A stretch of DNA of 64,000 bases from Gammaproteobacteria bacterium UBA6940 (GTDB taxonomy: Bacteria > Pseudomonadota > Gammaproteobacteria > Pseudomonadales > UBA6940): contig DJZY01000064.1 of assembly GCA_002450655.1 (NCBI GenBank), forward strand, positions 1-64,000, given 5' to 3'. Positions 25,749 to 29,124 of this stretch are shown here, piece by piece (position 1 is the first letter of the stretch; every line of letters begins with the position of its first letter). The position numbers and the translations under genes were made by a program. A model generated the notes under the pieces. That model had not been told where the DNA came from. It did not search any database and worked only from the letters and a program-made list of their open reading frames with translations.

Positions 25749-27326
25749 TTAAAGCTGAGCTTGTATTCTTGCAAGCTCTTTTTTAAGGTTTAATTTTTCA
25801 GGGACAACTAAGCTTCTATCATCTGCTAGCAATAATTTTGCAAGGCCCAGCATGCCTTTAACGTAAGGTGTGATTGGCATGTTATTAAAGGTGCTTGGCA
25901 AGACCTTTAATTCTTCTTTTTTAAAGCCTTTTTGAATAAGTTTATTTTCTGCCTTTAAACTTAAACTACTTGGTATTTTATCTGATGTAGGATAATGACC
26001 ATAGAGGGTGCTAATAATAAGTGAGCCTAAACTAAAACGATTATATGTTTTCTGTTCTATATCAGTTAAGGTGCCTCGTCTTGCGACTCTTGGCATAGTT
26101 ACAGGCGTTGACCAGCCTCTTTCAGGAAAGGTTTTTGAGTCAACCATCATATCGCCAATATCTGACATTTTACTGCCAAGAATATTCAATAAATGAAGAT
26201 CGGGATGATTCATTTTATGTGACTCTAAAAAAAGAACCATATCTATAATTTCAGAAACTTGTTTAAAGTTTTCTTGTTGGAATTCTTTTATTTTCCCTTG
26301 TTCTAGTAGCTCTAAATTATTTTCAAGACGATCAGCACCATCATCTTCATACACAAGTTCGGAAATGGTGTAGGCTTTTTCGCGAATTTGTTTTTTACCC
26401 TCAGTTGAATGTGAGTCGTAAAATTCCAAATAGTGCTGCGGAATAACGCAAAACTTTTCAATACCTGGGAACTGTTTTTGTAAGGCTTGGCCTTTTTCAA
26501 ATTCAAGTTGAGCATTTAAAGTACGAATGTTTTTCTTAGCTGCATAAAAGTGTTGATTTGCGATTTTCATGAGAGGCACAACTTTACCAAAAGCACCTTC
26601 ACCTAAAAGAGCACTCAGGGTTTCCTCACCTTCCACCTTGTATCTGGCCTTGCCTTTAGGGGCTAGAAAATCATTATGTAAGTCTGCTACAAGTCGGTTA
26701 TCACGCATATTGCCAGTGGGGTTGTAGCTTTTAAAGGATTCAAACCAATGGCCATCATCCGACTGGACTAGGGTATGGTCAAGATGAGTAAAACGCTTAT
26801 CCAGACGATTTGTCTGCAAGACAATAAAGGTTGTATCTAAATCTGCTCGCTTAAAAGAGTCTGCATGAAATTGATCGAGGTACTCTTTAGCTTCATGTGT
26901 TTTAATAAAAGACACTTGCTCAGGGTGTTGAGAGAGGTGGTCTACTAAAGTTAATAGCCTCTCTTGATATGCATCTTCCTCTTTTTGATCTTGGAGAAAT
27001 TCTCTGACAGAGGCATGGGCTTCAAAAAGGGACTGATCTTCGTTTAAAAATACTTTAAGCAATGTGAAAAGGGCATAGTCTTGATGCACTTGCGCTTTGA
27101 AGCCCTCAAGCTCTAATGTTGACATGCTATCGCTTCGCGGCAGTGATTGTGCTGCGCTTGTTGTGTTAGTCAGATAGTCGGAGTCAGCCGGTGTTGTTAT
27201 ATCTTGCGCATAGCTCTGAGTCGTTTGCGGCAACCGTGTAAGAGTTAAGCCCGCGAGGCGATTTTCAAGAGGTGCCTGCGGCTTTATAAACCCTTTGGTC
27301 TGTTGAACTGAAGAAGTGGCTACCAT
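25749..27326 (-). CDS. Atypical protein-kinase-fold protein (effector-like), paralog A
   Basis: 'LLGEGAFGKV' G-loop, 'YAAKK' beta3 Lys, 'HPDLHLLN' (HxDxxxxN catalytic-loop variant), 'DIGDMM'. Conserved C-terminal 'DDRSLVVPEKLNLKKE'. Confidence 0.6.
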   Translation of the reverse strand: MVATSSVQQTKGFIKPQAPLENRLAGLTLTRLPQTTQSYAQDITTPADSDYLTNTTSAAQSLPRSDSMSTLELEGFKAQVHQDYALFTLLKVFLNEDQSLFEAHASVREFLQDQKEEDAYQERLLTLVDHLSQHPEQVSFIKTHEAKEYLDQFHADSFKRADLDTTFIVLQTNRLDKRFTHLDHTLVQSDDGHWFESFKSYNPTGNMRDNRLVADLHNDFLAPKGKARYKVEGEETLSALLGEGAFGKVVPLMKIANQHFYAAKKNIRTLNAQLEFEKGQALQKQFPGIEKFCVIPQHYLEFYDSHSTEGKKQIREKAYTISELVYEDDGADRLENNLELLEQGKIKEFQQENFKQVSEIIDMVLFLESHKMNHPDLHLLNILGSKMSDIGDMMVDSKTFPERGWSTPVTMPRVARRGTLTDIEQKTYNRFSLGSLIISTLYGHYPTSDKIPSSLSLKAENKLIQKGFKKEELKVLPSTFNNMPITPYVKGMLGLAKLLLADDRSLVVPEKLNLKKELARIQAQL

Positions 27327-27459
27327 GATCGTCTCGCCTGTGCTGTTGTAAGCTTAAATGCTCACAGCATACTACTACAGTCCATTTTATGGTATCAAGG
27401 TGCCTGTACCTTTCCTTGGTTATTGTCTCTTTCTTGAGTCTTGGTACCTAACTTGCGCC

Positions 27460-29124
27460 CTAAAGCTTGATAAGTTTCATCGTATTGGTCAAAAAGCTAG
27501 CGTCTACGTACTTGCTTAGCTTCATCACTTCTGACTGAAGATTTAGCTTTTGTGGTGTAACAAGGCTTCGGTCATCGGCCATGAGGCGCTTGGATAGCTT
27601 TAATACGTCCTTTTGATAATCAGTAGCTTGTTGGCCAAGTATTGTGTCTGGCACAGTATCAAAGCTGTCTTTGGAATAGCCTTTTTGAATTCGCTGATTT
27701 TCCATAGGCAGGCGTAGCTCTGCAGGTGTATCATCCGCTGCTGGTGGCTTGCCAGTATTGCTGATAATCATGCTTGAGCCAATACTAAAACGATGAAATG
27801 TATCAAATTCTTCGTTTGTTAACTTTTCTTTATCAACGACTTTTGGCATGGTGTACTGAGGTGTCCAAGAGCTTTCAGGTATTTTCTGGCCAGGGCCAAT
27901 CAGGTCTGCAAGATCACCAGCTTGGTGCCCCATAATATTTTCCAGCTTAAAGTCTGGATGAAGTTTATGGGCTTTACTTAACACTTGCTCAAGTTTTGCC
28001 AGTGCGAATAAGAGTGCAAAGTTATTATTGATAAACTCTTGAATTTGGCCTCTTTTAAGCTGTTGCAAGTTATCATATGCAGCATAAAACTGATTTCGTT
28101 CCTGCGCTAAAGGTATAAAGCCATATCCTTTGAAGAAATTTGCTTGTTTATCGTTTTTCTGACTGCCAACTGTTTCAGAAAAATGTTCCATCATAAGAAA
28201 TTTATCGTGGTCTTCTTCTGGTAGGTCAGCTTTTAAGTTTTGTGCTTCTGTGTGTTCACGTAGAAGCGAGGCTATATCCCAAGATTTTTTATCAGCCCAA
28301 AATGATTCATCAGCCATATCCCGAGCAAGAATAACAATACCGCGTCCGCCAGAGCCTAAGATAGCTTGGTATTTATTTGAAGTTTCTTCAACAGCTTTTG
28401 CCCAGCCTTTTGGCAGGAGCTCTTTTTCATGAATATGACGCATTGCTTTATTATCATAGGCGTTATCTAAATCATAGGATTTAAATTGCTCGAACCATTT
28501 ACCACTGGTTGATTTTACGAGAGTGTGATGAAAGTGGGTGTCTCTCTTATCTAAGCGTCTTGGTGCAGAAATGACTTGTTCCATTGGGATTTTATAGGTT
28601 TCAACCGCTTTTTGATTAAGCATTCGTGTTGCTTCTAAAACACCCTTTGTGCGAAGGTCTGTTAACACTTTTGGGTTTTTTTGAATTTTTGCCGCAAGTG
28701 AGTCTAAAAATTCTGTTGTAATACGATCGCTTTTATTCTCAATAATAAAGTTACGAACTTTTTCAAAGGCTTCATCTGCATGGGCTTTTTTAAATGTTTT
28801 GTGTTGATCAAGATGCATTTTAACAAGTGCCATAACTGCATAGGTATTTTTCACCTGAGTCACTGTGTTTTTATAGCCTTCGGTCAGTCTCTTTATTTCT
28901 GATGACTCTGTTCTTTGCAGTTTTACGCTTGAGCTACTGCTGCTTCTTACGTGAGTGCGATGACTTGAGGCGTGAATTGCTTTTACTTTGCGAGCCTTAT
29001 TTGGCGATAGCGGCTTTAAATTGTTTAAATGTGAATTCGAATTTGTAATTGGTTGTTTTGAGTTCTCTGCAAAGTTTTGTGGTGTTTCATGGAGAACTGA
29101 AAGTTGTTGCAGCTGTGGACTCAT
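27460..29124 (-). CDS. Atypical protein-kinase-fold protein (effector-like), paralog B of 25749..27326
   Basis: 'RLDKRDTHFHHTLVKS..WFEQFKSY', 'LGSGGRGIV', 'WADKK', 'HPDFKLEN', 'DLADLIG', 'DDRSLVTPQKLNLQSE', aligned block by block with paralog A. Confidence 0.6.
   Translation of the reverse strand: MSPQLQQLSVLHETPQNFAENSKQPITNSNSHLNNLKPLSPNKARKVKAIHASSHRTHVRSSSSSSVKLQRTESSEIKRLTEGYKNTVTQVKNTYAVMALVKMHLDQHKTFKKAHADEAFEKVRNFIIENKSDRITTEFLDSLAAKIQKNPKVLTDLRTKGVLEATRMLNQKAVETYKIPMEQVISAPRRLDKRDTHFHHTLVKSTSGKWFEQFKSYDLDNAYDNKAMRHIHEKELLPKGWAKAVEETSNKYQAILGSGGRGIVILARDMADESFWADKKSWDIASLLREHTEAQNLKADLPEEDHDKFLMMEHFSETVGSQKNDKQANFFKGYGFIPLAQERNQFYAAYDNLQQLKRGQIQEFINNNFALLFALAKLEQVLSKAHKLHPDFKLENIMGHQAGDLADLIGPGQKIPESSWTPQYTMPKVVDKEKLTNEEFDTFHRFSIGSSMIISNTGKPPAADDTPAELRLPMENQRIQKGYSKDSFDTVPDTILGQQATDYQKDVLKLSKRLMADDRSLVTPQKLNLQSEVMKLSKYVDASFLTNTMKLIKL

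Follow-up and report, generated by a model that had tools for sequence, protein, structure and literature searches.

A tandem pair of predicted non-RD Hanks-type kinase genes in an uncultured marine gammaproteobacterium

A 64,000-nucleotide stretch of DNA from Gammaproteobacteria bacterium UBA6940 (GenBank assembly GCA_002450655.1, contig DJZY01000064.1, positions 1 to 64,000; hereafter the window) carries two adjacent genes, here called A and B (Table 1). Judged by sequence, these most likely arose by an ancient duplication, remain functional, and encode soluble, eukaryotic-like Ser/Thr kinases of the Hanks type, members of the eukaryotic protein kinase (ePK) superfamily. The kinase fold, the complete set of catalytic residues, purifying selection, and family membership are all supported. 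With their relatives, A and B form a small, undescribed subfamily that is non-RD (no Arg precedes the catalytic Asp) and has its own N-terminal module; so far it is found only in uncultured marine gammaproteobacteria. An initial annotation had described a tandem pair of atypical-kinase paralogs: the observation is confirmed, and the interpretation holds for the kinase fold and largely fails for the atypical family.

Both open reading frames (ORFs), of 525 and 554 codons on the same strand, lie exactly where the initial annotation placed them, separated by 133 bp, and every motif pair that it had aligned block by block recurs at collinear positions, as checked by regular expressions and coordinate translation. 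The two proteins share 33% identity and 53% positives over 475 residues (BLASTP, E=7e-73); they therefore are true paralogs, and chance resemblance is excluded. Comparison with a related strain reveals purifying selection on both genes, with ratios of nonsynonymous to synonymous substitution rates (dN/dS) of 0.111 for A and 0.112 for B. A pair of pseudogenes was rejected on this ground, since dN/dS of 0.11 speaks against decay. The products are identical to HBF09449.1/HCK93420.1 (A) and HBF09450.1/HCK93419.1 (B), both annotated as "hypothetical protein."

Evidence for the fold comes from an alignment, A3, of 24 family sequences over their conserved C-terminal 360 or so residues. The A3 profile matched 1,427 distinct PDB sequences at E<=1e-3; the best 60 all are classical protein kinases, with DYRK2 first (1.5e-14), followed by GCN2, CDPK1, and CaMK1. 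Each of the 24 sequences also matches Pfam Pkinase individually (best, 1.5e-14). An AlphaFold2 (AF2) model of A residues 165-525, built with the 24-sequence alignment, has a mean predicted local distance difference test score (pLDDT) of 94.2 and a predicted template-modeling score (pTM) of 0.91, and its top structural matches again are classical ePKs. (A full-length model of A, built with a four-sequence alignment, was discarded at pLDDT 36.) Profile, Pfam, and AF2 evidence agree on a predicted bilobal kinase fold, the absence of which the initial annotation had named as grounds for abandoning its proposal.

Motif equivalences were taken from profile alignments to DYRK2, GCN2, and two canonical kinases encoded elsewhere in the window. 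The motif order proposed earlier (G-loop, beta3 Lys, HxDxxxxN, D-x-G) proved collinear throughout. The family sequence GxGxFGKV corresponds to the G-loop, and both A and B have GxGxxG followed by Val. AVKK corresponds to VAIK and aligns with VALK/AIKK of DYRK2 and GCN2; the beta3 Lys and the alphaC Glu are present in both proteins. HPDLKPEN corresponds to HRDLKPEN, aligning with HCDLKPEN of DYRK2 and HRDIKPEN of the window kinases, so that HxDxxxxN is retained. The Asp in (A/G)D(I/L/F)(G/D) aligns with that of DFG in DYRK2 and the window kinases. Farther along, TxxYxPPE corresponds to GTxxYxAPE, RFSLG to subdomain IX, and DxPxxR to subdomain XI, with which the C-terminal DDRSLV of A and B aligns. 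Ten A3 columns are invariant, seven of which appear to be canonical ATP-binding or catalytic residues (G242, G244, A262, K264, D376, N381, and D389, in A numbering); G247, V249, E275 in alphaC, H374, P412, and F431 are nearly invariant. Both proteins have the full catalytic set (A/B): Lys K264/K279, Glu E275/E290, Asp D376/D391, Asn N381/N396, and the Mg-binding Asp D389/D404. A pseudokinase would be expected to have lost the beta3 Lys, the catalytic Asp, or the DFG Asp, and all three appear in A and in B.

The core departs from the canon in two places. Among 25 aligned members, the middle residue of HxD is Pro in 15, Gly in five, Ser in two, Thr in two, and Ala in one; none has Arg, so the family is uniformly non-RD. 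The replacement of the HRD Arg by Pro, reported earlier, thus stands. The accompanying statement that no APE motif is present does not: a degenerate version, TMPR in A and TMPK in B, aligns to PPE/APE, keeping the Pro and replacing the Glu with Arg or Lys, respectively, and distant members have PPE. Within the A/B subfamily, where the APE Glu is lost, subdomain XI has changed as well, from DxPxxR to (A)DDR(S). This may reflect a re-wired Glu-Arg salt bridge.

Such departures (HPD for HRD; loss of the APE Glu), together with the family-specific N-terminal module and single-sequence Pfam scores below threshold, could be read as marks of an atypical protein-kinase-like family in the style of HipA, CtkA, Fam20, Lpg2603, SidJ, or SelO, perhaps with non-canonical chemistry or a non-protein substrate. 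That claim of the initial annotation is largely refuted, and the reading, now very improbable, was rejected. All of the top sequence and structure matches are classical ePKs, with atypical families absent from the top 50-60, and all Hanks subdomains are recognizable, including the P+1 loop and subdomain XI; A and B are closer to classical ePKs than to HipA, CtkA, Fam20, or Lpg2603. Moreover, one metagenomic family member of 470 aa (P0029, a weak hit of the first family search) matches the family hidden Markov model (HMM) over its full length at 130.5 bits, and has both the RxDK..HT extension described below and a canonical HRDLKPEN/DFG/APE core. Because P0029 combines both features, the family is a derived branch of ordinary Hanks-type kinases rather than a separate atypical fold family, and P0029 itself seems to mark an intermediate stage in evolution between ordinary RD kinases and the HPD family. 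A and B therefore represent a new branch of a known enzyme class, not a new kind of enzyme.

Probably, then, A and B are active, divergent ePK-type protein kinases. Several points weigh against this assignment. PF00069 scores fall below the gathering threshold of 31.7 bits: 23.7 for A (24.8 for its trimmed domain) and 20.9 for B. Residues were mapped to the ATP site through alignment to solved kinases and through fold matches. A lacks the catalytic-loop Lys and both proteins lack the APE Glu, so reduced or non-canonical activity is possible. Finally, two scans of 185,579 GTDB species genomes turned up partial, generic kinase matches but not a single family member. Searches with single sequences have little power for these proteins: phmmer against the PDB gave only E=0.1-1.4.

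Since the catalytic machinery is complete, A and B would be expected to bind Mg-ATP and to transfer the gamma-phosphate to Ser/Thr of protein substrates. This substrate class is suggested by the P+1 loop and by the catalytic-loop Lys of B and the family. Absence of the HRD Arg implies that activation-loop phosphorylation probably is not needed (compare PMC8463890 on non-RD status and activation-loop independence). The two proteins differ in their substrate-binding elements. In B, the catalytic loop still has its Lys (HPDFKLEN), and the P+1 loop (WTPQYTMPK versus GTPEYLAPE) is near-canonical, retaining the TPxYxxP elements. A is altered in both: its catalytic loop, HPDLHLLN, has His for Lys, Leu for Pro, and Leu for Glu; and its P+1 loop, WSTPVTMPR, has S, T, and V in place of T, P, and Y. 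Besides A, only P0021 (Arg) and P0031 (Asn) in the alignment lack the catalytic-loop Lys. Because these elements are replaced in A, the duplicates most likely diverged in substrate specificity or catalytic efficiency. Because A nonetheless holds all residues that define an active kinase, both are predicted to be active, with A shifted in substrate recognition or rate.

The same differences invite another arrangement, in which B is the enzyme and A is a weakened kinase or pseudokinase that scaffolds, activates, or retargets it (compare ROP5/ROP18 and STRAD/LKB1). A alone in its subfamily lacks both the catalytic-loop Lys and the P+1 Thr and Tyr, all present in B; the tandem layout is kept in the related strain; and another tandem pair of the family occurs at a different locus. 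Such a duo, which would overlap with either cellular role considered below, is nevertheless unlikely: A holds the G-loop, K264, E275, D376, N381, and D389, and is under the same purifying selection as B. Moreover, the family is represented by a single copy in other genomes, so its members can do without a partner.

Each protein would comprise four segments, in order from the N-terminus: one that is polar and disordered; a helical domain of about 100 aa; an N-lobe extension with the motif RxDKxxTGLxHT; and the bilobal catalytic domain. In the first 65 residues of A and B, S/T/Q/N/P make up 49-51%, versus 28-29% overall; for A this segment has pLDDT 21-23 in the full-length AF2 model, which is poor as a whole. 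Neither protein contains a hydrophobic segment (maximum Kyte-Doolittle 19-residue average, 1.13). Searches of PDB and Pfam with a profile of the helical domain gave nothing significant (E>=0.2, the weak matches being inconsistent). The N-lobe extension has pLDDT 88-96 in the trimmed AF2 model, with strands at 22-24 and 30-33 and a helix at 43-57 (trimmed-model numbering). Its motif reads RLDKRFTHLDHT in A and RLDKRDTHFHHT in B. Across 24 sequences, T180 is invariant and R174, D176, K177, and T185 are nearly so; P0029 has Gln at the T180 position. The extension could be an alphaC-stabilizing cap, a pseudosubstrate, or a phospho-site. Its likeness to known structures is treated as structural analogy, because other kinases trail by only about 1 unit in fold-match Z.

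A HMMER search of 1.84 billion cluster representatives with the A/B profile identified 30 proteins at E<=1e-3, 22 of them at E<=1e-10, and all metagenomic. Named copies come from marine metagenome-assembled genomes (MAGs) labeled "Gammaproteobacteria bacterium" or "Pseudomonadota bacterium," several from Tara Oceans. A word-indexed search of 5.8 billion proteins returned only near-identical orthologs of A and B; the same kind of search with the 24-sequence alignment returned only P0001 and a fish kinase. A and B are members of no family in NCBIfam or PADLOC, and searching the literature for HPDLKPEN gave no results. In other MAGs, family members are single-copy and have unrelated neighbors. 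Relatives of UBA6940 contain a second tandem pair of the family (L007, 6150..7877 and 8001..9896), comprising a 575-aa protein (family HMM E=8e-70) and the 631-aa P0008, directly adjoining genes for JetA, JetB, and JetC (Wadjet). P0008 is encoded by the same MAGs, and its VX185 copy is named "serine/threonine-protein kinase" by PGAP. A neighbor-joining tree places A with B and the 575-aa protein with P0008, although the grouping is weak and every branch long.

By profile and fold, A and B belong to the superfamily of bacterial Hanks-type Ser/Thr kinases (PF00069; for example, Mycobacterium tuberculosis PknB). They differ from these in having no transmembrane, PASTA, or sensor segment; in substituting Pro, Gly, Ser, Thr, or Ala for the HRD Arg across the family; in the APE Glu lost from their subfamily; in their own helical domain and N-lobe extension; and in their sub-gathering Pfam scores. 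The best family-profile scores outside the family belong to the window's canonical kinases (84.7 and 65.4 bits, versus 57 for the best PDB kinase), whose alignment with the family also spans alphaC to alphaE and which lie in the same genome, within 18 kb. These, however, have HRD/DFG/PPE cores, score 112-124 bits on Pfam Pkinase, and show no clear RxDK..HT extension. The Legionella Dot/Icm effector kinases (LegK1-4 and LegK7; PMC9758233) likewise are soluble, eukaryotic-like, gammaproteobacterial proteins with several paralogs, and an effector role may be shared; but neither A nor B matches NCBIfam T4SS_LegK1 (NF043056, cut-off 550 bits), and no Dot/Icm genes were seen. Also counted among the closest known systems are the Toxoplasma rhoptry kinases ROP18, ROP5, and ROP2/8, which bear an N-terminal extension (PMC3682881). 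The non-RD kinases of innate immunity (IRAK1, EFR, FLS2, and XA21; PMC8463890) also lack Arg before the catalytic Asp, but their lineages and architectures are unrelated and the likeness is that of a single residue.

What might such kinases do in the cell? On the leading hypothesis, A and B would be exported effectors acting on eukaryotic host proteins, a role to which protein architecture and genome style point: the proteins are soluble; the N-terminus is polar and variable; there are no partner genes; tandem expansions occur; and the genome is rich in orphans and kinases. The cellular role is the least secure part of the account, and the odds of this one fall a little short of even. Against it, neither the 64-kb window nor the fetched flanks (10 kb upstream) showed any secretion-system gene, chaperone, or host signal, so endogenous signaling stays a strong rival. 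There, A and B would be cytoplasmic signaling kinases that, like many soluble Hanks-type kinases, act on the bacterium's own proteins and are not exported. Hanks-type kinases are widespread in free-living bacteria, with generic matches here in Planctomycetota, Acidobacteriota, and others; A and B are seated among housekeeping genes; and the second family pair has an FHA-domain gene about 4.6 kb away. Less easily accommodated are the absence of a sensor, transmembrane, PASTA, or other input domain and of a conserved partner gene; the long, polar, variable N-termini; fast divergence with lineage-specific tandem expansion; and a region rich in orphan ORFs and eukaryotic-like kinases. Endogenous signaling is a real but doubtful prospect.

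A third role, as kinase components of an anti-phage defense system, draws on weak, generic matches of some family members to the mad6 and PD-T4-6 kinase models, and on the JetA, JetB, and JetC genes beside the second tandem pair. It is barely conceivable, and was rejected: PADLOC gives no match for A or B, and the matches of other members are confined to short, generic kinase motifs; no defense genes flank A and B, whose neighbors are thioredoxin, photolyase-related, accBC, and aroQ genes; and no neighborhood is conserved across genomes.

The exported-effector role can be elaborated. The helical domain and the RxDKxxTGLxHT extension might constitute a new regulatory or targeting module (an alphaC cap, pseudosubstrate, or autophosphorylation switch), with the tandem pairs acting as effector duos, one copy catalytic and canonical, the other specificity-shifted or regulatory, delivered into a planktonic eukaryotic host. 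This is distinctly improbable; if true, it would reveal an unrecognized family of effector kinases beyond the Legionella, Salmonella, and Yersinia models. More generally, genes for "hypothetical proteins" in several Tara Oceans MAGs can be re-annotated as encoding what appear to be catalytically equipped Ser/Thr kinases, and a small non-RD subfamily is defined; it has an N-terminal module peculiar to it, and P0029 provides an RD-type intermediate in its evolution. If the organism lives in association with a host, the two tandem pairs and two canonical kinases would amount to a compact kinome of effectors in an uncultured marine lineage; they would also offer a natural example of duplicated kinases whose substrate-binding elements have diverged. 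General significance is modest, because the enzyme class and its chemistry are well known; the use lies in annotation, with mild relevance to kinase evolution and possibly to marine host-microbe biology.

Table 1. Features of the A/B pair and other ORFs, in window coordinates
Feature	Position	Strand	Remarks
Gene B	27460..29124	-	554 aa; upstream member of tandem pair; divergent non-RD Hanks-type Ser/Thr kinase (predicted); family HMM E=2.6e-115
Gene A	25749..27326	-	525 aa; downstream member, same family as B; catalytic-loop and P+1-loop residues altered; family HMM E=4.2e-104
A residues 1-65	27132..27326	-	polar, probably disordered N-terminus, 49% S/T/Q/N/P; no signal peptide or transmembrane segment (composition and hydropathy)
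A residues 66-165	26832..27131	-	family-specific helical domain, about 100 aa; conserved across close subfamily
A residues 166-236	26619..26831	-	family-specific N-lobe extension (beta-hairpin and helix); RLDKRFTHLDHT at 26772..26807
RLDKRFTHLDHT/RLDKRDTHFHHT block	A174-185 / B190-201 (residues)	-	collinear motif pair, RxDKxxTGLxHT
B residues 182-251	28372..28581	-	N-lobe extension; RLDKRDTHFHHT at 28522..28557
A residues 237-525	25752..26618	-	catalytic domain; coordinates verified by translation
A G-loop GEGAFGKV (A242)	26580..26603	-	
A AAK with beta3 Lys264 (AAKK, A262)	26535..26543	-	
A alphaC Glu275	26502..26504	-	
A catalytic loop HPDLHLLN (A374)	26184..26207	-	
A DIG (DIGD, A389)	26154..26162	-	
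A P+1/APE-equivalent WSTPVTMPR	26088..26114	-	
A RFSLG	26025..26039	-	
A subdomain XI DDRSLV (A502)	25806..25823	-	
B residues 252-554	27463..28371	-	catalytic domain
B G-loop GSGGRGIV (B257)	28333..28356	-	
B ADK with Lys279 (ADKK, B277)	28288..28296	-	
B alphaC Glu290	28255..28257	-	
B catalytic loop HPDFKLEN (B389)	27937..27960	-	
B DLA (DLAD, B404)	27907..27915	-	
B P+1/APE-equivalent WTPQYTMPK	27841..27867	-	
B RFSIG	27778..27792	-	
B subdomain XI DDRSLV (B517)	27559..27576	-	
Canonical Pkinase protein	10792..12855	+	687 aa; Pfam E=8.2e-36; family profile 84.7 bits, E=4.6e-26; closest A/B relative outside family
Canonical Pkinase protein	18165..19727	-	520 aa; Pfam E=4.6e-32; family profile 65.4 bits, E=3.4e-20
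ORFs without Pfam family	22801..24114, 36822..39394, 40012..41022, 43488..44327, 45129..47213, 49146..50816, 53072..54079, 56075..57103, 61493..62662		

A photolyase-related gene (29372..30874) flanks the pair on one side and a convergent thioredoxin-family gene (25197..25733) on the other; accBC, aroQ, and prmA are nearby, and this arrangement is kept in the related strain (L001-L006). Four kinase-fold genes do lie close together, as the initial annotation proposed, within about 18 kb; its two canonical kinases are genuine Pfam Pkinase matches, and on the LegK1 model they score 41.5 and 40.1 bits against the cut-off of 550.

Synonymous divergence (dS) from the related strain (L001; window 25749..34756) jumps at the A/B boundary: it is 0.01-0.07 for A, the thioredoxin gene, orf163, orf189, and the 520-aa kinase; and 0.29-0.40 for B, the photolyase-related gene, the Zn-ribbon/DUF3426 gene, and accC. 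The step points to a recombination breakpoint at around 27.3-27.5 kb.

Scattered among the window's housekeeping genes are about ten ORFs, 279-694 aa long, without a Pfam family, a pattern that resembles effector-rich, host-associated genomes. Other ORFs have long segments outside their recognized domains. An 867-aa ORF (5274..7877) has four phosphoglucomutase/phosphomannomutase domains, only at residues 417-853, with no Pfam match in the roughly 400 residues that form its N-terminal part; a Cu/Zn superoxide dismutase, SodC (20555..21364), has its domain at 136-268 of 269 residues, after an unusually long N-terminal extension (the related-strain call is 249 aa); and a 660-aa ORF (13311..15293), between the 687-aa kinase and a glutathione S-transferase gene, has SPFH/Band 7 at 337-485 as its sole Pfam match.

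Beyond the left edge of the window are only housekeeping genes and a transposase. On the Tara Oceans contig L049, DDE transposase fragments (DUF4096 and DDE_Tnp_1; 9222..9975) lie just upstream of window position 1, as does, immediately upstream of the window, an 855-aa ORF without a Pfam match.

No Rfam RNA families were found in the window, and the promoter and terminator scans as a whole were at the level of shuffled sequence. One terminator-like hairpin, GAGCTTGTATTCTTGCAAGCTC followed by a T run (25757..25778), lies 24 bp past the thioredoxin-family stop codon (gene end, 25733); it also overlaps the convergent gene A at its 3' end and could be a bidirectional terminator.

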